DNA of 64,000 nucleotides from Patescibacteria group bacterium (GTDB lineage: Bacteria; Patescibacteriota; Patescibacteriia; JAHJFT01), in assembly GCA_028710985.1 (NCBI GenBank), contig JAQTTB010000001.1, positions 655,073-719,072 on the forward strand, in the 5' to 3' direction. Made by a program: the position numbers and the translations under genes. Positions 14,455-39,835 of this stretch are shown here, piece after piece. The notes beneath the pieces are model-generated. The model had not been told where the DNA came from, did no database searches, and saw only the letters and a list, made by a program, of their open reading frames with translations. Within the stretch, counting starts at the first letter, position 1; every line of letters starts with the position of its first letter.

Positions 14455-14471
14455 AACAACCCGCTCGTATT

Positions 14472-14627
14472 GTCATCCTGAGTCCCGACATCCGCGAAGC
14501 GGAATGTCGGGGCGAAGGATCTCACAGTCTCGAGATGAGCGTCCACGGCGCCACCATGGTCATGGCGAGATGCGAGATCCTTCGCCCCTCACCCCTCGAC
14601 AAGCTCGAGGCTCGGGCTCAGGATGAC
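14472..14627. repeat. Inverted pair of GTCATCCTGAG-[hairpin]-CGAAGGATC nested repeat elements
   Basis: Copy a1 at 14472-14523 is on the plus strand and copy a2 at 14574-14627 is on the minus strand. Inner hairpins are tcccgacatccgc-gaag-gcggaatgtcggg and cctcgagcttgtcgagggg. Confidence 0.7.
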
Positions 14628-14650
14628 AATATTATGGATGTGTATGCGAT

Positions 14651-14864: not shown

Positions 14865-15719
14865 CTACTTCGCCCGGACCGCCACGTACCCGCGCGGTAT
14901 GAGCCAGCGCCGCGTCACGAGCTCGTAGTTCACGAGGCCGATGAGGCCGCCCGCGAGCGCGCCGATGATCGCCGAACCCGCGACGTACCCGGCCACCGAA
15001 CCGATGACCGCGTCGGTGAAGCAGAGCGCCCGCCGCTCCGAGTGGATGCGGACGAACACCTGCCAGCCGAAACGTCCGAGGAAGCGGACCAGAGCGACGG
15101 AACCGCGTCCGATCGCCATGATGGATCGTCCCATGAAGCGCAGAATCTCCACCATGGCTCTCGGCGTTCTCTTCATGAGCCACCACATGCCGCGGGGCAG
15201 GTGGTAGAAGAGGACGATGGGCGGGGCTAGACAGTATGCCGCAGTCCACGCGGTTTTTCGATGATGGTCGAGAATTTCGTCGCGTTTTGGTGCTTGGGCA
15301 CATCCGGTGGTATAGAATAACAGTATTACTGTACTGATGCACATGATTGTAGCACCAGTGACGATCTTGAGCACTTCGAACGCTCCTTGAAAAATTTCGA
15401 CCTTAGGTTCGAATATGTCTATCGCAATAAAGAAGATGATGGTCGTTGTTGCAAGATCCAGGAAGAAGCAGAAAAAAGCGACCAAACCCGCCGCAGTGGT
15501 TTTCCAGAAACGCCGATCCGGCCTCCATCCTCTGGCCGCCCGGTACGCCGCCGGGATGACGCCGATGACGCGCCGGAAATCGTAGGCCAGGTAGCCCACG
15601 AGTCCGCCGGTGATGAGCCCGACCCAGATGAGCCAGGGCTTGAGCTCCAGAGCGATGAGCGAGCCAATGAATGCGCCCACGCCACACGCGAACATGATTT
15701 TCCAGGATTCCTTCTTCAC
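14865..15719 (-). CDS. Hypothetical polytopic membrane protein in a GC-rich (~60%) segment
   Basis: 284 aa with several predicted transmembrane helices. GTG start preceded by a strong SD (AAGGAGG with a 6-nt spacer). The composition differs markedly from its neighbours. Confidence 0.55.
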   Translation of the reverse strand: MKKESWKIMFACGVGAFIGSLIALELKPWLIWVGLITGGLVGYLAYDFRRVIGVIPAAYRAARGWRPDRRFWKTTAAGLVAFFCFFLDLATTTIIFFIAIDIFEPKVEIFQGAFEVLKIVTGATIMCISTVILLFYTTGCAQAPKRDEILDHHRKTAWTAAYCLAPPIVLFYHLPRGMWWLMKRTPRAMVEILRFMGRSIMAIGRGSVALVRFLGRFGWQVFVRIHSERRALCFTDAVIGSVAGYVAGSAIIGALAGGLIGLVNYELVTRRWLIPRGYVAVRAK

Positions 15720-15823
15720 GACGAACCTCCTTTTTGGTTGTCAGAGAACAATCAGTCGGTTTCCCGACTTTTCATCACATTATAGTGGAAAAAGCCCATT
15801 TTGTCAAGCCATTCACTCTTATC

Positions 15824-15939
15824 GTCATTGCGAGCCCCGAGCTTGTCGAGGGGCGAAGCAATCCCGTTGCAGGCGCTTCAAAATAGGTACAGGATTGCTT
15901 CGGTCGTCCCGACTGCTGTCGGGACTCTCTCGCAATGAC
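15824..15939. repeat. Inverted pair of GTCATTGCGAG-[hairpin]-CGAAGCAATCC nested repeat elements
   Basis: Copy b1 at 15824-15864 is on the plus strand with inner hairpin ccccgagcttgtcgagggg. Copy b2 at 15892-15939 is on the minus strand with inner hairpin gtcccgacagcagtcgggac. The inner hairpins match those of the a1/a2 pair, with the flanks and cores swapped. Confidence 0.7.
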
Positions 15940-16008
15940 GATAAGAAAAGAAGAAGATAAAGCGTCGGGGCTCTACCCAAATTACCGATTTTTTGTTAAA
16001 ATCAACCC

Positions 16009-17299: not shown

Positions 17300-17665
17300 T
17301 CAGGAACGGGGGGATGACATCTGGAGCGCGGCATCGACGGCTTTCGTGAAAGCGTCGAAGTTGAGTGGCTTGGCGAGGTGCTGGGTCCGGTCGTCGGAGG
17401 GCAGTTTGTCGCTTCCTCCGGTCATGAGGATGAACGGCAGGTCGGGACACGTGGCGCGCACGCGCGCGAACAGCTGTTTGCCGTCCATGACCGGCATGTT
17501 CACATCCGAGATGATGAGCGCGGCCGTATCCTTCCAGACCTCGAGCGATCGCAGGGCCTCCTCACCGTTTTCGCACAACACTGTGAGGTTGCCCATGCGC
17601 TTTAAGATGCGCGAGATTGCGTTTCTGATTTCCTGGTCGTCATCCACGACAATGATCAGCGACAT
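17300..17665 (-). CDS. Single-domain response regulator (CheY-like receiver)
   Basis: Canonical receiver residues: VVDDD, ISDVNMP (phospho-acceptor Asp), LMTG and LAKP. 121 aa. Confidence 0.75.
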   Translation of the reverse strand: MSLIIVVDDDQEIRNAISRILKRMGNLTVLCENGEEALRSLEVWKDTAALIISDVNMPVMDGKQLFARVRATCPDLPFILMTGGSDKLPSDDRTQHLAKPLNFDAFTKAVDAALQMSSPRS

Positions 17666-25790: not shown

Positions 25791-26963
25791 ATGGAAAAAC
25801 AAGCATTACAACCAAACATTATTTTCAGACTCGTATTAGCAAAAACGCTCTTCAAGAGTGGTTTAGAGTGTTGCGATACCGGAGTGGATATTTACAATTT
25901 TTCTCATGGGTTGATCGCTCTGCACGATGCTCTGGACAATTTTTCGGGTGCGATAGCATCAATTTTGAATATTGCTCTTAGTCGGCCCAGTAAATTTATT
26001 GATACGTTAGATTCAATTGAGCAATACGAGAAAAAATCTAATTCAAATTTCGTATTAACGAGTAGGAATGAATTATACCAGCTCAACACTCTTCGTAATA
26101 GTATTAAGCACCAAGGAATTGTTCCCGATATCAAACACGCCAAGGCATTGATAGAGCCGATTGTTAAATTTTTCAAAGAATATTCCCGTTATTATTTCGA
26201 CCTAGAATGGGATATTATTAGCCTGGCGGATTTGATAAAAAATGACACTACGAAAAATGCACTTAATAAAGTTGAGAAATTTATTGGCCGTGGTCAACAT
26301 AAAGAAGCATTGAACGAAATGGCTATTATAAAATTTCAAGTATTTGATGAACAACATATTCGAGCAAAACTTGATTCACGATTGGCGGCCTACTACCTAG
26401 AAACGGCAAACATTGAAAAGCTAAGAATGGCTAAAAATATATTTCCTAAGCGAGAAATATTAGTTTCAGACACTGACCAACGTACTCGGCTTCTTGAATG
26501 GGGTATCGATAGTGGTCAGATGCAGAAATTCGAAGATTTAACCGCGGAAGTTGGTATTAATAACGTGAATGATTGGGAGTATGTGTTAAGGCACGGTAGC
26601 GCCTGGGGAAGACCCAACTGGACTAGGGAAATCTCAATTTTCTGTTTCGATTTTTTGATAGATGCCATTATTAAACACCAGCGTAAAGATTATGGAGTAA
26701 GGCAGGTGGTCATTCCATGGCTCATTCATATAAGGGCGCGAGAAGAAATTAAATTGTATGTTGATGATAAAGAAATATACTCTATTTCAAAAGGCGAAGA
26801 ACGCGTTGCGCTAATTCCCGGTAGGGTAGATGATGGCTGGGAAATTTTCGAAAATAAAGATCGCTTGTTGGTTCTTATGGATAAAGATGGCAGTGCGAGC
26901 AATATGATTTCGGGCTTCTTCAATGAGGGAGATGAGGACAAAATTGAAATTCTAGGAAAGTAA
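25791..26963 (+). CDS. Hypothetical protein with an N-terminal HEPN-like Rx4H motif, in an AT-rich island
   Basis: 390 aa. The motif LRNSIKHQG at about residue 103 matches the HEPN R-x4-6-H signature in the position expected for a ~120-aa N-terminal HEPN domain. GC is about 35% against ~55% in flanking rtcB. Confidence 0.45.
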   Translation: MEKQALQPNIIFRLVLAKTLFKSGLECCDTGVDIYNFSHGLIALHDALDNFSGAIASILNIALSRPSKFIDTLDSIEQYEKKSNSNFVLTSRNELYQLNTLRNSIKHQGIVPDIKHAKALIEPIVKFFKEYSRYYFDLEWDIISLADLIKNDTTKNALNKVEKFIGRGQHKEALNEMAIIKFQVFDEQHIRAKLDSRLAAYYLETANIEKLRMAKNIFPKREILVSDTDQRTRLLEWGIDSGQMQKFEDLTAEVGINNVNDWEYVLRHGSAWGRPNWTREISIFCFDFLIDAIIKHQRKDYGVRQVVIPWLIHIRAREEIKLYVDDKEIYSISKGEERVALIPGRVDDGWEIFENKDRLLVLMDKDGSASNMISGFFNEGDEDKIEILGK

Positions 26964-27132
26964 TTTTTCTCAAGGATGGGCATGGAAAGATAAATAGAAT
27001 AATCAGTAATCAAAGATAGTTTGATGAGAATATGATTTATAAAAACCGCTCCTAAGCAGAGTCAAACTCTAGTTATTCTAATGCGCATAACATAGCTAGG
27101 GCTTTAAGATTCATCCGCAAAATTAAATTTTT

Positions 27133-27648
27133 ATGCAAACAAAACGATTAACAGCCGATGAAATCATCACACTGAATGATTTTCCGGTGCACAACGGGCA
27201 GATATTGAAAATATTTTTTATTATATTTAGAAAAAAATGTTCTAAAATTATTCCACCTTGCCCTATAATGGATGTATCCTTGGTACTTCCTTTTTTCTCG
27301 GCCAAGCTTAAAAATCTATTTTTAAAATTTAGAATCAAGAACCCCCAAGCAAAATATTTTTTACTCGATGGTAGTCACAAAACAACCGCGGCGGCACTAA
27401 CCGGATCGCGAATTCCAGTAATGATTTTAAAAAATAACAAAGACATACAAGAAGCCAAGCAAATGGTAAAAATAGGCGATTTATTTAGTTTGACGGTAGC
27501 GAATACTATGAAAAATAACGCCATTGAATTGAAAAATCATTTTAACAAGAAAAAATATTTTCAAACAGTAAATGAGAAAACTCAAATAATGGTAAAGAAA
27601 AAAGTCATTCCCCGGTATATGATTGATTATTACAAGAAGCATAAATAA
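27133..27648 (+). CDS. Hypothetical protein with a ParB/Srx-like DGxH[KR]xxAA motif
   Basis: 171 aa. LLDGSHKTTAAAL resembles the ParB/sulfiredoxin-fold signature (DG.HR..A). AT-rich. Confidence 0.4.
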   Translation: MQTKRLTADEIITLNDFPVHNGQILKIFFIIFRKKCSKIIPPCPIMDVSLVLPFFSAKLKNLFLKFRIKNPQAKYFLLDGSHKTTAAALTGSRIPVMILKNNKDIQEAKQMVKIGDLFSLTVANTMKNNAIELKNHFNKKKYFQTVNEKTQIMVKKKVIPRYMIDYYKKHK

Positions 27649-27651
27649 TTC

Positions 27652-28173
27652 TTGAGCAATAATTTTAACAGCATGGGTTACTATATTATCATCCGTGGAC
27701 CACTGGGTTGCGGTAAATCAACAATATCCGAGAAACTCGCTCATATTCTTGACGCTAAATATATTGGAATGGACGAGGTGCTAGAAAAACACGGGCTTGA
27801 TAAAATGCCGCCCGACGCACCCTGCATCCCAGCGGAAAACTTTATTAAAGCAAACGAAATTATCGTGCCAGAAGCTAAGCAGCTTTTAGACGCCGGCAAA
27901 ATAGTTATTTTTGATGCGTGCTTCTATCATAGAGAAGTAATTGAGCACCTCTTGAAGAATCTTCTTTATGAACATTACATTTTTACGCTAAGGGCACCGC
28001 CGGAGCTCTGCATTAAAAGAGATAGCGAGCGTCATAAAACCCATGGTGAAGGCGCGGCATTAGCCGTTCATTCGCTCGTTTCTCGGTTTGATTATGGCAA
28101 TATTATTGACGTTACCGGAAGCCTCGAAGACGCATTGAAAGATATTCTTTCCTATTTGCCTTTAAAAAATTAA
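27652..28173 (+). CDS. P-loop NTPase / small-molecule or polynucleotide kinase-like (AAA_33, zeta-toxin or Pnk-like)
   Basis: Walker A GPLGCGKST, Walker B-like VIFDACF. At ~170 aa it is typical of standalone kinases. Confidence 0.6.
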   Translation: MSNNFNSMGYYIIIRGPLGCGKSTISEKLAHILDAKYIGMDEVLEKHGLDKMPPDAPCIPAENFIKANEIIVPEAKQLLDAGKIVIFDACFYHREVIEHLLKNLLYEHYIFTLRAPPELCIKRDSERHKTHGEGAALAVHSLVSRFDYGNIIDVTGSLEDALKDILSYLPLKN

Positions 28174-34422: not shown

Positions 34423-34812
34423 ATGAGCCATTCAATGAAATTTAGTGATCTGGAAATATGGAAAATCGGATTCAAGTCGCTATCGGAAATCTACGCGTTA
34501 ATTAAAAACTTTCCTAAATTTGAACAGTTCGCGTTAGCTAGCCAGTCAATTAGATCAGCAAATTCGATCATTGCCAATATCGCTGAAGCTCATGGTAGAT
34601 ATTTTTTCAACGACAAGATACGGATATTGTATATCGCACGCGCCGAGGCCGAAGAGGTTCAGAGTCATTTAATGGTAGCTTGCTCGCAAGAATATATTTC
34701 AAAAGAAATTGCCAACCAGTTAATTGAAAGATATGAAGTTCTTATTAAAAAAATCAATTCATATATTTCATACCTGTCGCAGAAACGTCCTGACTCACCG
34801 ATTAACCGATAA
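34423..34812 (+). CDS. Four-helix-bundle protein of the 23S rRNA intervening-sequence protein family
   Basis: 129 aa with the same family pattern as 3668-4036 (IWKIGFKSLSEIY ... NIAEAHGRY ... AEAEEVQSHL). It is flanked by inverted repeats of the ggtgaatcggtt family at 34371-34402 and 34797-34823. Confidence 0.7.
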   Translation: MSHSMKFSDLEIWKIGFKSLSEIYALIKNFPKFEQFALASQSIRSANSIIANIAEAHGRYFFNDKIRILYIARAEAEEVQSHLMVACSQEYISKEIANQLIERYEVLIKKINSYISYLSQKRPDSPINR

Positions 34813-35314: not shown

Positions 35315-36580
35315 ATGTTAGATATAAAATTTATCCGCGAAAATCCGGACAAAGTTATAAAAGCGCTGGCAACCCGCGGGTATAAGGCTGACATCAAATC
35401 AATTTTGAAAATCGACGACAAGCGCCGTGAATTTTTGCATAAAATCGAACAGGCCAAAGCCGAGCAAAACAATGTTAGTAAAGAAATTGGCAAGATGAGC
35501 AGTAAAGATAAGAAAGCCGCCCTCGCGCGGATGAAAAAAGTTAAAGATTCGGTCCGTAGCGAAGAGGAAAAGCTTGAAAAAGTAGAATCCGAACTCGCGG
35601 TCAAGCTGGTTGATTTGCCCAACATTCCGCTTGAGGATGTGCCGGTCGGCAAGGATGAATCATTTAATGTAGTTCTGCGCGGCGATGAGCCGCCCAAAGC
35701 CCTGGGCTTTGAGCCCAAGGATCACATCGCCCTTGGCGAATCCCTGGACCTGATTGACGTTGAGCGCGCCGCCAAAGTATCGGGTTCGCGTTTTTGTTAT
35801 TTAAAAAATCAAGCTGTGATGCTGCAGTTCGCTCTCGCGCGCTATGCCGTGGACACGGCTGCGGAACAGGGATTCATGCCCATGATTCCGCCGGTTCTTA
35901 TAAAGCACGAGGCAATGCGGGCCATGGGCTATCTTGAGCACGGCGGCGATGAGGAGACCTATCAATTCGAAGAAGATAATTTGATTCTTGTGGGCACGTC
36001 CGAGCAATCCGGCCTGCCGTATCACATGAATGAGACTTTGGACGAAAAAGAATTGCCCAAACGCTACATTTGCTATTCAACCTGCTTCCGCCGCGAAGCC
36101 GGAAGCTACGGCAAAGACGTGCGCGGCATTTTGCGCGTGCATCAGTTTGATAAACTGGAAATGCTTTCCGTCACCGCGCCGGAAAAATCTCGCGCCGAGC
36201 ACGAGCTCATAATTTCGATTCAGGAAAAACTGGTCAAGGGCCTGGGGCTGCCGTATCGCGTGGTCGCGCTCTGCACCGGCGATCTCGGCGCGCCTTCGGC
36301 CAAAACAATTGATATTGAAACCTGGATGCCGTCGCAGAAGCGCTTCCGCGAAACCCACTCATCGTCCAATTGTACGGATTTCCAGGCGCGTCGTCTTAAT
36401 CTGCGCTGCAAGACAAAGTCCGGCAATGTCTTTTGCCACACCCTGAACGGCACGGCCTTTGCCATGGGCCGCATCCTGATCGCCATTCTGGAAAACTTCC
36501 AGCAAAAAGACGGGTCAATAAACATTCCCGAGGTATTGCACAAGTATCTTGATTTCACAAAAATTCCATTCGGCAAATAA
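35315..36580 (+). CDS. serS: Seryl-tRNA synthetase
   Basis: N-terminal coiled-coil arm and class II catalytic motifs. 421 aa. Confidence 0.9.
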   Translation: MLDIKFIRENPDKVIKALATRGYKADIKSILKIDDKRREFLHKIEQAKAEQNNVSKEIGKMSSKDKKAALARMKKVKDSVRSEEEKLEKVESELAVKLVDLPNIPLEDVPVGKDESFNVVLRGDEPPKALGFEPKDHIALGESLDLIDVERAAKVSGSRFCYLKNQAVMLQFALARYAVDTAAEQGFMPMIPPVLIKHEAMRAMGYLEHGGDEETYQFEEDNLILVGTSEQSGLPYHMNETLDEKELPKRYICYSTCFRREAGSYGKDVRGILRVHQFDKLEMLSVTAPEKSRAEHELIISIQEKLVKGLGLPYRVVALCTGDLGAPSAKTIDIETWMPSQKRFRETHSSSNCTDFQARRLNLRCKTKSGNVFCHTLNGTAFAMGRILIAILENFQQKDGSINIPEVLHKYLDFTKIPFGK

Positions 36581-36599
36581 ATTCATTCTTTATTGTCAT

Positions 36600-36675
36600 T
36601 CAAGGCGGGGCTAGAGAGCCCCGCCTATTATTAATAAATTTTTTATAAATAGGTGGGGCTCTCCAGCCCCACCGA
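36600..36675. repeat. Inverted pair of GC-rich hairpins (ggcggggctagagagccccgcc and ggtggggctctccagccccacc)
   Basis: The two hairpins are near reverse complements, separated by an AT-rich spacer, at the left edge of the GC-rich paralog cassette. Confidence 0.55.
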
Positions 36676-36773
36676 AAATAAAAAAATCCGGCCCAGCAGG
36701 GGTCGGATGTGCGGTTGGGGAAAGAACATGGGGGCGTCTATCGTTCGGCCAAGCCTCAGCCGGCCGAATCGCG

Positions 36774-37670
36774 CTATTCGGGGTCGGCTTCGCCTAGGCA
36801 GTGCTTGCGTAGGTAGGCGAGAAGGTCTTGCAATGCGGCCGGTGATGCTGCCCGTGACACTACTTTATCGTCGGCTTCAATTATCAGCTTCCTGACGCTG
36901 TCCTTGTCGCCGCGTGCATGAGCCGCGAGAACACCATCCATCCATCCGGTAAAAGAAAATGGAAATACTTCTCCGCAGCTTTTCATGGTGGTGTATATCA
37001 GACCGAATGTGATGGGATCCAGCGGAATCACGCCCGGCTTGGGCTCGGCCTTGGTCATCTGGTTCAGCAGGTCGTACAGGATGTCGGTGATTTTCGCGGC
37101 ATCCTTGTATGGTGTCGATGACGTATCCCAATACCGGGGGTTTACCTTCGGTAAGAACTCGGCTAATATCTCATCTCGATGCCATGGATGGCCGCACAAG
37201 GCGGTATCGAGGATGGCGCAGAGTCCGTCCATGAAACGAATCTTCAGTTCCTTGTCCCTCTGATCATTGATGGTTAATACGATCTTGAGAAGGTCGCGGA
37301 GCGGGATGTGGCCGGCCGGTGCAGACGGGTTGGCCGCCACGGCAGTTTCCGTCCCGGGGAAGCGTCCGATGGCGTTGAAGATCTTCTGGAGCAGGGCGGC
37401 GGGGATCGGATCGCCCTTGTGCGCGCCCTCGCGTGAGACCAGATTCTCATCCTGGTCGGTGTCAACGGCGAGCCGGTTCTCAACCGACTTCCGGTCGCCG
37501 ACCATGAACTCGGCGATGGAGATTTCCACCTTGTCGCGGTTGCCCTGGCGGCTTCCGCTCTTGGTGACGCGGAAGTAAGGATTGCCCTGGGCGTCGCAGT
37601 TTTCCTTTGAAACCTGCAGGGCATAGAGACGGGCGGTCTCTTCGGGGTTGAGGTCGATTCTCAAAAACAT
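36774..37670 (-). CDS. Hypothetical protein, paralog 1 of a tandem pair
   Basis: 298 aa. The C-terminal ~90 aa align with the 37874-38512 product (AEPKPGVIPLDP ... AYLRKHCLGE versus AEPKPTAIPLTAD ... AHLRKHCLGE). GC-rich. Confidence 0.55.
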   Translation of the reverse strand: MFLRIDLNPEETARLYALQVSKENCDAQGNPYFRVTKSGSRQGNRDKVEISIAEFMVGDRKSVENRLAVDTDQDENLVSREGAHKGDPIPAALLQKIFNAIGRFPGTETAVAANPSAPAGHIPLRDLLKIVLTINDQRDKELKIRFMDGLCAILDTALCGHPWHRDEILAEFLPKVNPRYWDTSSTPYKDAAKITDILYDLLNQMTKAEPKPGVIPLDPITFGLIYTTMKSCGEVFPFSFTGWMDGVLAAHARGDKDSVRKLIIEADDKVVSRAASPAALQDLLAYLRKHCLGEADPE

Positions 37671-37873
37671 GGGCTCCTCCTTGCCTGGCCGACCGTTGAG
37701 CGACTGCCCAAAGGTCCCGACACTGCGGGACAGGCCAAGACATTACAATCTAGCAATAAACTTGATGTTTGTCAATATATGGGTGGGGTGCTAATAAACC
37801 TCGCCGCGTGGTAAATAAAAAAATCCGGCCCAAGGGGGTCGGAAGTGTGGAAGGGAGAAGGAGCGATGATTAG

Positions 37874-38512
37874 CTATGTGGTTTTGCCGGGCATGGGTTC
37901 GGCGGGCGTCTCGGTCTCGCCCAGGCAGTGCTTGCGCAGGTGGGCGACGATCAGTTTGAAATAGAGATCATCCTTCAGCTCGCTGTTCAGAGCACCGGCC
38001 CGATCTAACTGAAGGCGCAGGTCAGGGTCATTCTCGTAATAGCGTACAATGATTCCAACCAGCCAAGCCCCAAAAGTATGGGGATGATACTCGAGCGGCA
38101 GTGTGCTGATGGCGTGAAGCGCGCGTACGAAGTCAGCGGTGAGCGGAATAGCAGTCGGCTTGGGCTCGGCCGTGGCCGCGTTTTCGTCCGCCACGGATTC
38201 TGGAAAGATATCCAGCGCGTCAGCGAGCTTGCGCCAGTATACGGGCGGAAGCGGCTTGAAGAGCATGACTTCCTTATCTTCCTCCCGATACCCGACCGCC
38301 AGCTCTAAGGTGACTGAGTATTCCAGAAGTTTGCCCCTCTTCACGCTTAGAACGTCCACGAACTTGGTTAATGGGAAGTTATATTCGCTGAAGCTCTTTC
38401 CGGCCGGCGCGGGCGGCTCTCGGTTCATGGCCATGTCCACGAATTTGAGAAGCTCGGCCAGCTGTTTGCCCGTGAGTTCCTTTTTAACGATCATGGTTTC
38501 TCCGTCTGGCAT
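37874..38512 (-). CDS. Hypothetical protein, paralog 2 of a tandem pair
   Basis: 212 aa, homologous over its full length to 36774-37670. It has the same promoter-like upstream motif and a terminator paralogous to that of paralog 1. Confidence 0.55.
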   Translation of the reverse strand: MPDGETMIVKKELTGKQLAELLKFVDMAMNREPPAPAGKSFSEYNFPLTKFVDVLSVKRGKLLEYSVTLELAVGYREEDKEVMLFKPLPPVYWRKLADALDIFPESVADENAATAEPKPTAIPLTADFVRALHAISTLPLEYHPHTFGAWLVGIIVRYYENDPDLRLQLDRAGALNSELKDDLYFKLIVAHLRKHCLGETETPAEPMPGKTT

Positions 38513-38589
38513 TTCATGGACACCGTCCAGGGTTCCGATACCATCGGAACAGGCCAGAATAGGTAAACATTAAAATAAACCTTGATTTT

Positions 38590-38705
38590 TGTCAAGAAAT
38601 AAGCTAAAATATCGAATGTCCAATGCCTGAATGTCTAATGTCTAACCCGATTAATTATTGAGTCATTGGGCATTATTTAGGCATTCGCTATTAGGCATTA
38701 GTCAT
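38590..38705. repeat. Imperfect palindrome built from aatgtc/taggcatt units
   Basis: gaatgtccaatgcctgaatgtctaatgtctaa ... cattgggcattatttaggcattcgctattaggcatt; the left half is close to the reverse complement of the right half. Confidence 0.5.
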
Positions 38706-38707
38706 TT

Positions 38708-39835
38708 ATGAAAGTTTGGGTCGAAATTATCAAAAACAACCTCATATACAATCTCCAAACCTTTCGGTCAATTATTGGTCCCAAGGTTGCTTTAATGTCC
38801 GTGGTTAAATCCAATGCCTACGGCCATGGCATGATTGAAGTTGCAAAAATCGCCGAACCGCACGCCGACTGGTTTGGCGTTGATTCAATTGACGAAGCCT
38901 TGGCCCTCAAAGCCGCCGGTATTGCTAAGCCCATTTTGATTCTCGGTTACACCATGAATGGCCGCTTGACCGATGTGGTTGAAAACGGATTTGCGCAAAC
39001 GGTTTACAACCGGGACACAATCAAAAATCTCGGAGAACTTTCGAAAAAAATAAATAAAAAAGTAAATCTGCATTTTAAAATTGAAACTGGTACTTCCCGG
39101 CAGGGGATTGGGGAGACGGATCTCATGGATCGGATCGCGATTGTCAAACAATATTCCAATCTCGTGATTCAGGGATTGTCCACGCATTACGCCAACATCG
39201 AAGATACAACGGATCACAGCTTTGCGAAGTCGCAGCTGGAAAAATTCAATGACGCAATAAAAAAATTATCCGAACAGGGGATTGAGGTGCCGATGAAGCA
39301 TACGGCCTGTTCGGCGGCCACGATTTTATTTCCGGAGACGCATTTTGACCTGGTGCGCGTCGGCATTTCCCAGTACGGCCTGTGGTCGTCCAAGGAAACA
39401 TTTGTGTCCGCGAACGGCGAGGCCCGGAAAATCGATTTAAAGCCGGTTTTAACCTGGAAAACCGTGGTTAGCCAGGTAAAGAGCGTGCCCGTCAGTACGC
39501 CCGTCGGCTACGGCCTGACCGAAAAAGTAAGCCGGGATTCGCGCCTCGCGGTTCTGCCCATTGGCTACTGGGACGGCTTTGACCGCCGTCTATCCAGCGT
39601 GGGCAATGTTTTGATCCGCGGCAAGCGCTGCAAAGTCCTTGGCCGCGTCTGCATGAATATGATCATCGTTGATGCCACCGATCTGCCGGAAATTAAGGCT
39701 GAAGACGAAGTCGTTCTGATCGGCCGCCAGGGCAGCGAAGAAATCACGGCCGATGAAATGGCGCAAAAAATCAGCTCAATCAACTACGAAGTGGTCACTA
39801 GAATTAATCCGTTGATTAAAAGAAAAATCGTTTAA
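38708..39835 (+). CDS. alr: Alanine racemase
   Basis: PLP-lysine motif VVKSNAYGHG and the two-domain TIM-barrel plus beta architecture. 375 aa. Confidence 0.9.
   Translation: MKVWVEIIKNNLIYNLQTFRSIIGPKVALMSVVKSNAYGHGMIEVAKIAEPHADWFGVDSIDEALALKAAGIAKPILILGYTMNGRLTDVVENGFAQTVYNRDTIKNLGELSKKINKKVNLHFKIETGTSRQGIGETDLMDRIAIVKQYSNLVIQGLSTHYANIEDTTDHSFAKSQLEKFNDAIKKLSEQGIEVPMKHTACSAATILFPETHFDLVRVGISQYGLWSSKETFVSANGEARKIDLKPVLTWKTVVSQVKSVPVSTPVGYGLTEKVSRDSRLAVLPIGYWDGFDRRLSSVGNVLIRGKRCKVLGRVCMNMIIVDATDLPEIKAEDEVVLIGRQGSEEITADEMAQKISSINYEVVTRINPLIKRKIV

Follow-up and report, generated by a model that had tools for sequence, protein, structure and literature searches.

We analysed a 64,000-nucleotide stretch of DNA (the window) from a Patescibacteria group bacterium (contig JAQTTB010000001.1, positions 655,073 to 719,072, forward strand), in which two tandem minus-strand open reading frames (ORFs), here called genes A and B, lie between the plus-strand genes serS (35315-36580) and alr (38708-39835). 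The larger ORF carries the NCBI product name 'MAG: hypothetical protein PHW53_03415 [Patescibacteria group bacterium]', and three public contigs of the source organism are 100% identical to the window. A preliminary description of this DNA had presented A and B as paralogues of an unrecognised family, forming a GC-rich cassette with repeated promoters and terminators and with inverted-repeat hairpins at its borders. Beyond that description we report a structured 5' leader ahead of each gene, a modular architecture of the encoded proteins, and a high GC content at third codon positions (GC3) throughout the family. The features of the locus are collected in Table 1.

Both ORFs are present on the minus strand, gene A exactly as first described. 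Gene B, originally listed as 38512-37874 (212 aa), most likely starts at the ATG at 38494, because a GGAG Shine-Dalgarno sequence (SD) lies 6 nt upstream, the resulting N-terminus MIVKKEL is homologous to the MFLRIDL/MFIKMKL of relatives, and one public gene call concurs. BLASTP aligns the two proteins at 25% identity over ~190 residues (E=6e-10), the AEPKP..IPL and LRKHCLGE segments included, confirming that they are paralogues, and the proposed homology along the entire length is borne out since B aligns end to end with a relative, P0006 (E=1.9e-9). As had also been suggested, whole transcription units are repeated: promoter, leader, ORF, terminator and even a second downstream hairpin. The copy of this hairpin after B is decayed and aligns with that of A, so the repeated unit extended past the terminator.

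Table 1. Genes, expression signals and repeats of the alr-serS locus (window coordinates; domains and modules are explained in the text).
Feature	Position	Strand	Description
Heptamer palindrome	38608-38706	.	AATGYCY-type, seven copies in two inverted blocks (~3-4 per orientation), between the alr start codon at 38708 and the B promoter
B promoter (putative)	38567-38595	-	-35 TTGACA 38595-38590; 17-nt spacer with conserved CAAG; -10 TAATGT 38572-38567; consensus match
B leader RNA (predicted)	38505-38558	-	Three-way junction: P1 UCUGGC/GCCAGA, P2 GUUCCGAU/AUCGGAAC, P3 UGGAC/GUCCA; minimum-free-energy fold; starts 8 nt after -10
B SD	38500-38503	-	GGAG
Gene B	37874-38494	-	206 aa; diverged N-domain, AEPKPTAIPL linker, one helical C-module ending LRKHCLGE
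B intrinsic terminator (putative)	37817-37843	-	UCCGACCC-CCU-UGGGCCGGA then U7
Decayed hairpin after B	37782-37811	-	Copy of A's second (back-up) hairpin, from alignment of the two downstream regions
A promoter (putative)	37747-37775	-	-35 TTGACA 37775-37770; 17-nt spacer with CAAG; TG-extended -10 TAGATT 37752-37747; consensus match
A leader RNA (predicted)	37684-37739	-	Three-way junction: P1 CUUGGCC/GGCCAGG, P2 GUCCCG/CGGGAC, P3 UUGGGC/GCUCAA; starts 7 nt after -10
A SD	37676-37682	-	AAGGAGG; 1 nt after P1
Gene A	36774-37670	-	298 aa; N-domain (1-106), M2 (~120-205), AEPKPGVIPL linker, C-module ending LRKHCLGE
A linker-coding joint	37020-37049	-	AEPKPGVIPL; B counterpart 38170-38141
A C-terminal joint	36789-36812	-	LRKHCLGE; B counterpart 37939-37916
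A intrinsic terminator (putative)	36680-36707	-	UCCGACCC-CUGC-UGGGCCGGA then U7; conserved A.C mismatch in stem
A second terminator-like hairpin	36652-36673	-	GGUGGGGCU-GGAG-AGCCCCACC, then U/A-rich tail
serS terminator-like hairpin	36604-36625	+	GGCGGGGCU-AGAG-AGCCCCGCC; inverted twin of 36652-36673

Expression signals and a structured 5' leader

Taking a TTGACA-like -35 box, a 16-18-nt spacer and a TATAAT-like -10 box as the definition of a sigma-70 promoter, consensus matching places a putative near-consensus promoter of this type before each gene. The promoter pattern pointed out in the preliminary description occurs exactly twice in the 64 kb, at 38595-38574 (0 mismatches) and 37775-37754 (3 mismatches, from a 1-nt indel), against ~0.02 occurrences expected by chance. 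Five independent promoters, namely those of A and B and of three loci from relatives (L005, L019 and L020, see below), share the pattern TTGACAAA-N3-4-CAAG; in each the -35 box is perfect and the spacer is 17 nt long. The conserved CAAG makes a short palindrome with the -35 box and could be an operator.

The upstream regions of A and B can be aligned past the promoter, and recognisably the same leader is found in L004, L005, L006 (partial), L019 and L020. Folded alone, each of the five distinct leaders forms two hairpins, P2 and P3, closed by a stem, P1. In the window the leader is a predicted three-way junction of ~55 nt. P1 sets in 7-8 nt downstream of the -10 hexamer at all five promoters, a spacing by which it would begin at about +1 of the mRNA, and the SD follows 1-2 nt past P1 in both units of the window.

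For the main alignment, we hand-fitted six leaders to the structure and padded them with Ns. In this alignment 93.9% of the pair cells are standard and 12 of the 19 pairs have changed on both sides; P2, for example, reads GUCCCG/CGGGAC in A, GUUCCG/CGGAAC in B and GCUGG/CCAGC in L019, and P1 occurs as CUUGGCC/GGCCAGG, CUUGGU/ACCAAG and AUCCGG/CCGGAU. None of 500 column shuffles reached the observed pairing and covariation, and when partners are shifted by 1-3 columns, only 25-47% of cells pair. A covariance model made from the hand alignment matched only the true leaders in 141 kb of DNA that included the loci of chance matches, and it scores the A leader at 48 bits (E=4e-10) and the B leader at 26 bits (E=1e-4). 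Alignment by the model itself gave 95.4% paired cells and double changes in 9 of the 19 pairs, and RNAalifold, run on an unfitted MAFFT alignment, recovered P1 with 3-4 double changes. The compensatory base pairs maintained among five distinct sequences, in alignments fitted to the structure, identify the leader as a predicted structured cis-acting RNA.

The leader is better conserved than the coding sequence next to it. Window and L004 differ in promoter and leader at 3 of 105 nt, compared with a synonymous divergence of 0.16-0.27 in the adjacent coding sequence, and the leaders of A and L005 are 84% identical (95% in paired columns), compared with 49% at the third positions of the adjacent 70 best-conserved codons. 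Among closer relatives CCUUUGG and GCAG are conserved. Only two unpaired positions, a U in J1/2 and a G in L3, are invariant across all six leaders, and both the length and the sequence of J3/1 differ (CGGUC, GAAA, UGUAAA, UCAGAAAA). An alternative helix, CUGUCC x GGGCAG, is possible in 92% of the cells of the six leaders and is mutually exclusive with P2 and P3; its arms lie at approximately 37733-37726 and 37702-37697 in the A leader (columns 14-20 and 43-49 of alignment A5). This helix has no double (compensatory) changes, so it may merely reflect sequence conservation.

No Rfam 15 family matched the window at the gathering level; at E<=10 the region showed no more than spurious miRNA-type matches, which fell on the pair of terminator hairpins and not on the leaders, and at E<=1 nothing matched the leaders of L005, L019 and L020. 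Searching the window with the covariance model, filters off, returned no leader beyond the two known copies. The leader pattern had 7 matches in JGI metagenome contigs, all by chance and all within unrelated coding sequence, and 5 in GTDB species representatives, which were judged, without inspection, to be chance matches from unrelated organisms. Readings of the leader as a hammerhead, a tRNA-like element or a T-box were unsupported by eye, and ARAGORN and Rfam found nothing. We saw in the leaders no conserved pairing that sequesters the SD and no terminator/antiterminator, and they lack the combination of conserved ligand-pocket junction and expression platform that defines a purine-type riboswitch. 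The leader is undescribed so far; its role, that of a cis-acting 5' element, is of a known kind.

Downstream of each gene, 30-65 nt past the stop codon, lies UCCGACCC..GGGCCGGA followed by U7. A G+C-rich stem-loop that is directly followed by a U run downstream of a stop codon defines an intrinsic terminator, and by their sequence both elements should be Rho-independent terminators. They are paralogous, as first proposed, with an exact 20-nt stretch, AAATAAAAAAATCCGGCCCA, common to both, and the stem of the A terminator is found also in L004, L005, L006 and L022.

The border repeats of the preliminary description are also present, the hairpin pair 36604-36625/36652-36673 being unique in the window and the right border being formed by the TAGGCATT-type palindrome at 38608-38706. 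The idea that they delimit a discrete segment did not hold up. The left hairpins (36673-36652 and 36604-36625) are inverted twins, GGYGGGGCU-NNNN-AGCCCCRCC, each followed by an A/T-rich tail, and have the form of a convergent terminator pair, of which one would serve serS and the other would back up gene A. The right palindrome is absent at the same spot in L019 and L020 and is a genome-specific border feature outside the conserved unit, and the locus itself is syntenic in relatives. In L005 a different, imperfect palindrome (82-147) lies between the alr start codon and the cassette promoter. Only ~35 nt separate the alr ATG from the cassette -35 box in L019 and L020, so that the alr promoter must overlap the cassette promoter there.

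Protein modules, descent and base composition

Relatives of A and B are rare. A word-indexed search of 5.8 billion clusters gave 4 proteins each for A and for the family alignment, and only itself for B, and 1.84 billion representatives, searched exhaustively with a HMMER profile, yielded 7 matches, of which 6 were real (P0002, P0003, P0004, P0006, P0007 and P0008); these six relatives are the extent of the motif family elsewhere among those representatives. The family does remain unrecognised. Scans of A, B, the six relatives and the small partner genes described below against Pfam, NCBIfam, PADLOC and PHROGs gave nothing significant, and no known defence or toxin-antitoxin model of PADLOC, Pfam or NCBIfam matched A, B or their relatives. 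Profiles of the family and C-module alignments had only chance matches (E>=0.02) in PDB sequences, to de novo designed helical bundles, and fold searches returned generic helical matches only. No relative was found by a protein-pattern scan of GTDB species representatives, by four scans of IMG/VR, or by tblastn of phage and plasmid collections. The protein family fits no known kind, and structure prediction assigned none: in the AlphaFold2 models the modules are helical bundles with a predicted local distance difference test score (pLDDT) of 70-87, and the N-domain is a low-confidence alpha/beta unit.

The N-domain comprises ~105 aa and reads MF(L/I)(R/K)IDLNP..TARLYAL..FR(V/I)TK.GSR..DKVEIS..EF...PIPxxLLxxIFNAIGRFP; a diverged form, N', occurs in B, P0007 and P0008. 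It is followed by one to four helical-bundle modules joined by Pro-rich AEPKPxxIPL linkers, and the protein usually ends in (Y/F)(L/F)R(K/R)(H/N)CLGE. By alignment and local BLAST, module M1 is found in P0003, P0007 and the upstream gene of L004. M2 is found in A, P0002 and P0003, with two copies in P0008. M3, W..G...AY..GD...L...(Y/F)(L/F)R(K/R)(H/N)CLGE, is found in A, B, P0006 and P0007, and a diverged form of it closes P0008. Local alignments thus show the three modules in differing combinations: N-M2-M3 in A, N'-M3 in B, N-M2 in P0002, N-M1-M2 in P0003, N-M3 in P0006 and N'-M1-M3 in P0007. The proteins lack any hydrophobic segment, and they are mildly acidic, with an isoelectric point (pI) of 5.6. 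The ratio of nonsynonymous to synonymous divergence (dN/dS) between A and its 90%-identical relative in L004 is 0.26-0.41, which points to a real coding gene under moderate constraint.

Comparison with L004 brings out how the modules change. L004 and the window are 90.6% identical in nucleotide sequence over a stretch that runs from the B-position stop codon to codon ~206 of A. The A-type gene of L004 lacks the C-module, and its B-position gene is unrelated to window B except for the 30-nt linker, which is 97% identical to that of A, and the 26-nt LRKxCL motif. A and B themselves resemble each other in DNA sequence at three short places only, which are the linker (20-34 nt, 82-95% identical), the C-terminal motif (37 nt, 86%) and the terminator (36-39 nt, 87-89%). 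The tandem genes of L004 both end in ..TDTTP and have terminators that are 95% identical over 40 nt, and L005, L006 and L022 also carry the terminator stem CCGACCC/GGGCCGG, A.C mismatch included, although their coding sequence cannot be aligned. These comparisons show in part, and otherwise suggest, that modules have been gained, lost and swapped between close relatives at conserved joints, one being the linker and the other the C-terminal motif with the terminator. As the joint segments stay alike between tandem copies, gene conversion is suggested.

We fetched the DNA around all six relatives, and synteny is conserved at each locus that extends into a neighbouring gene. L005 (P0003) has the alr start codon at one end and the serS 3' end at the other, and L006 (P0004) adjoins the serS 3' end. 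L019 (P0006) carries an ftsQ-like gene, alr, the family gene with a 93-aa gene, serS and a CTP-transferase-like gene, in the order of the window. On the contigs of P0007 (L020 and L021) alr is followed by the family gene and a small gene of which the contigs contain 87-88 codons, and L022 (P0008) has the family gene, a 93-aa gene, an IS200-like Y1 transposase gene and serS. Synteny is seen on the alr side in L005, L019 and L020 and on the serS side in L005, L006, L019 and L022, and the alr-serS gap holds a family gene in five other related organisms (six in total). Identity between organisms is 76-79% for alr, 60-72% for serS and 31-68% for the N-domain, the remainder of the protein being mostly unalignable. 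Since N-domain identity parallels serS identity (68% and 71% between the window and L005, 56% and 60% between the window and L019), vertical descent of a fast-evolving locus is the simplest reading.

The small gene after the family gene (L019 2935-3216 and L022 1416-1697, 93 aa each; L020 2962-3222, 87 codons before the contig end) is Cys/His-rich and 40-80% identical among L019, L020 and L022, and its start overlaps or abuts the family-gene stop codon. It has no Pfam or NCBIfam match and no homologue in the window. The possibility that it is a free-standing C-module was rejected on an hhalign probability of 0.3%. The Y1 transposase gene of L022 (1789-2343, weak Pfam match) lies between the cassette and serS, and its insertion may mark the alr-serS gap as permissive for insertions.

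The genes are richer in GC than their surroundings, as first described, at levels somewhat below the 58-60% then given (A 57.2%, B 56.5%, cassette 56.2%); the 59 long ORFs of the window average 48.1 +/- 5.4%. These values are high, not unique, as genes 14865-15719 and 17300-17665 reach 60%. GC3 is 0.71 in A and 0.70 in B versus 0.545 +/- 0.088 for the window ORFs. Cassette genes exceed the flanking genes in the other genomes as well, with 0.67-0.68 versus 0.34-0.44 in L019, 0.67 versus 0.51 in L020, 0.58-0.66 versus 0.31-0.51 in L022 and 0.62 versus 0.55 in L005, and high GC3 characterises the family in all of its host genomes rather than being a trait of this genome. We rejected GC3 as a mark of high expression, the ribosomal-protein genes of the window having a GC3 of 0.41-0.54, and likewise selection on mRNA structure, the synonymous-shuffle z-scores of A (-2.8) and B (-2.1) comparing with -1.4 to -4.1 in seven controls. 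Simple foreign origin explains the GC3 poorly because the evidence favours vertical descent. Candidate explanations are GC-biased gene conversion at a recombination-prone locus and selection against AU-rich RNase sites.

Interpretation and alternative explanations

We lean towards regarding the alr-serS locus as a vertically inherited, lineage-restricted locus of a narrow Patescibacteria clade, fixed in position, whose leader-equipped units encode fast-evolving, soluble, modular proteins of an undescribed family, and we hold this to be somewhat probable. Each unit would be built for strong, independent and stable expression, and the leader, as a conserved cis-acting RNA, would protect the 5' end of the mRNA and/or bind a trans-acting factor, metabolite sensing being less likely. 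The proteins would diversify through gain, loss and swapping of modules at the conserved short DNA segments. Among roles for the leader we rank a 5'-terminal stabiliser and/or factor-binding site first, autoregulation by the encoded protein next and a riboswitch last. As for the protein, we guess that it is an abundant adaptor or scaffold of the cytoplasm that takes part in an interaction under rapid change.

Several observations weigh against this interpretation. The promoters and transcription starts come from consensus matches only. Just five distinct leaders exist, and the alignments were fitted to the structure, the main one by hand; P3 keeps just one double-changed pair in the model-made alignment, and the folding energies of the single leader sequences are unexceptional (z -0.35 to -2.0). 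A plain 5' stabiliser needs neither three helices nor the conservation of CCUUUGG and GCAG, and the alternative helix suits a switch better than a static stabiliser. Purifying selection on short patches could account for the conserved joints just as well as gene conversion. Both AlphaFold2 models are poor overall (pLDDT 57 and 54), with the N-domain below 50.

The view closest to the preliminary description would make the locus a horizontally acquired mobile cassette, foreign GC-rich DNA between serS and alr that is delimited by inverted repeats. It would account for genes that are richer in GC and GC3 than their flanks in every genome (in L019, 55% GC and a GC3 of 0.68 versus 35-42% and 0.34-0.44), for the palindromes at both borders and for the Y1 transposase gene that adjoins the locus in L022. 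We consider it very unlikely, however, given that the family gene has the same location in six organisms in total, that N-domain divergence tracks serS divergence, and that the borders are unrelated in sequence, the left one being a terminator pair and the right one not conserved. No integrase or transposase lies in or beside the segment and no recombinase ORF in window 33-42 kb, no other copy or fragment is present elsewhere in the window, and IMG/VR and the phage and plasmid collections hold no relative. Foreign DNA long inherited vertically should drift to host composition, so the high GC3 needs another cause. Of the marks of a transposable element, miniature inverted-repeat transposable element or integron cassette (matching terminal inverted repeats or attC, a recombinase, more copies, variable location) the locus shows none. 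As to diversity-generating retroelements, of which the repeat part alone was considered, no repeat of any cassette part occurs elsewhere in the 64 kb. Module exchange after a demarcation motif could also signify a conflict system, that is, a polymorphic toxin with its immunity protein, a toxin-antitoxin pair or an anti-phage or anti-host factor. In its favour, the conserved linker motif is followed by variable modules that close relatives have exchanged, the proteins evolve more rapidly than the neighbouring gene products, and a conserved 87-93-aa gene overlaps the stop codon of the large gene in L019, L020 and L022. Yet the modules form simple helical bundles in which no catalytic motif can be recognised, PADLOC, Pfam, NCBIfam and PHROGs gave no match, the extreme C-terminus is conserved, unlike that of polymorphic toxins, dN/dS is below 1, the small partner gene has no homologue in the window, and A and B are separately transcribed paralogues rather than a toxin-antidote pair, all of which makes a conflict system highly doubtful.

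The leader could instead be an autoregulatory operator, the N-domain of the encoded protein binding its own leader and repressing translation in the manner of ribosomal-protein leaders. Leader and N-domain are the two conserved parts of each unit and diverge together, the most diverged forms of both being those of B and P0007; the N-domain stretch FRVTKSGSRQGNRDK is basic, and with only 1-2 nt between P1 and the SD, binding of the protein would obstruct the ribosome. Against this, joint divergence is also expected from simple common descent, the protein and its N-domain are mildly acidic (pI 5.6-6.3), searches of family libraries and PDB profiles detected no RNA-binding domain, and no fold can be assigned, so that we rate autoregulation as unlikely. 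Less probable again is a metabolite-binding riboswitch of a new class controlling translation or stability. The three-way junction with its compensatory changes, some unpaired stretches kept in closer relatives, the mutually exclusive helix possible in all six leaders and the lack of an Rfam family that accounts for the leader are in keeping with one. The junction nucleotides, however, are poorly conserved once diverged members are included, the alternative helix lacks double changes, neither conserved SD sequestration nor a terminator/antiterminator pair is present in the leader, and the downstream genes are neither metabolic nor transport genes. A further-reading account, which we likewise regard as unlikely, would make this a dedicated diversification locus, in which an abundant soluble protein is remodelled by cassette recombination at the joints, GC-biased gene conversion causes the GC3 excess, and leaders of a new three-way-junction class respond to a ligand or to the protein they precede. 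If this is true, episymbiotic ultrasmall bacteria would have a variable-protein system of a new kind.

Several known systems resemble the locus in part. In polymorphic toxin loci a conserved demarcation motif, such as VENN in CdiA, precedes C-terminal domains that vary. They share with the present locus a conserved N-terminal part, exchangeable modules after a short motif conserved also in DNA and, in some relatives, a small overlapping downstream gene; they differ in that the A/B family has no secretion-associated or toxin domain, its C-terminal end is conserved, and no immunity-like partner exists in this genome. Purine riboswitch-type three-way junctions have the same size (~55-65 nt), P1/P2/P3 topology and covariation-supported helices, whereas the junctions of the present leader are short and variable and come with no conserved expression platform and no Rfam match at E<=10. 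Like ribosomal-protein autoregulatory leaders, it is a structured 5' leader beside the SD that is conserved along with the encoded protein; unlike them, it matches no Rfam leader family, and the A/B proteins are not ribosomal and have no recognised RNA-binding domain. Going by works that appear in the reference list of a review (PMC3997798), the leaders of E. coli ompA and B. subtilis aprE are 5'-terminal stem-loops that stabilise mRNA. Set beside what these entries convey, the window leaders agree in that pairing starts at or within 1-2 nt of the predicted 5' end and in the strong SD and strong terminator that follow; they differ in being three-helix junctions with partial sequence conservation where ompA and aprE have a single hairpin, and stabilisation is here a prediction only.

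The locus is a compact unit that seems to be strongly expressed, and conservation is higher in its non-coding parts than in its coding sequence. In the tiny genomes of Patescibacteria most lineage-specific genes still lack an explanation, and to our knowledge very few regulatory RNAs have been reported from these bacteria. The leader is a candidate new cis-acting RNA motif that is directly testable, and the set of promoter, leader and terminator could serve genetic tools for Patescibacteria. If recombination causes the GC3 excess, the locus would be a clean natural case, in AT-rich bacteria, of single-locus GC-biased gene conversion; if these readings fail, the finding is an ordinary orphan paralogue pair.

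Other features of the window

Two multi-hairpin palindromic elements of ~130-165 nt (14468-14631 and 15817-15946) flank a GC-rich minus-strand gene, 15719..14865. Their outer stems of 18 nt are 94-100% complementary, and a 26-nt segment is common to the two in inverted orientation (92%); neither element has an Rfam match at E<=0.1. The gene between them has 60% GC and a GC3 of 0.75, its own TTGACA-17-TATAAT promoter and a 284-aa membrane-like product with no Pfam match. The segment 14468-15946 resembles a repeat-bounded cassette more closely than the A/B locus.

A stand-alone response-regulator receiver gene (17300-17665, minus strand, 59.6% GC) has the highest GC3 of the window (0.80) and lies in a mostly plus-strand region. 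An AT-rich block at 25791-28173, with three ORFs of 31-42% GC against a window mean of 48%, is an anomaly opposite to that of A and B. Between lysS and the CTP-transferase-like gene, an AT-rich plus-strand gene (34423-34812, 36.7% GC) encodes a 23S-rRNA-intervening-sequence protein. The bAvd proteins accompany diversity-generating retroelements, and this gene has a weaker, bAvd-like match (E=2.4e-6) below the Pfam cut-off.

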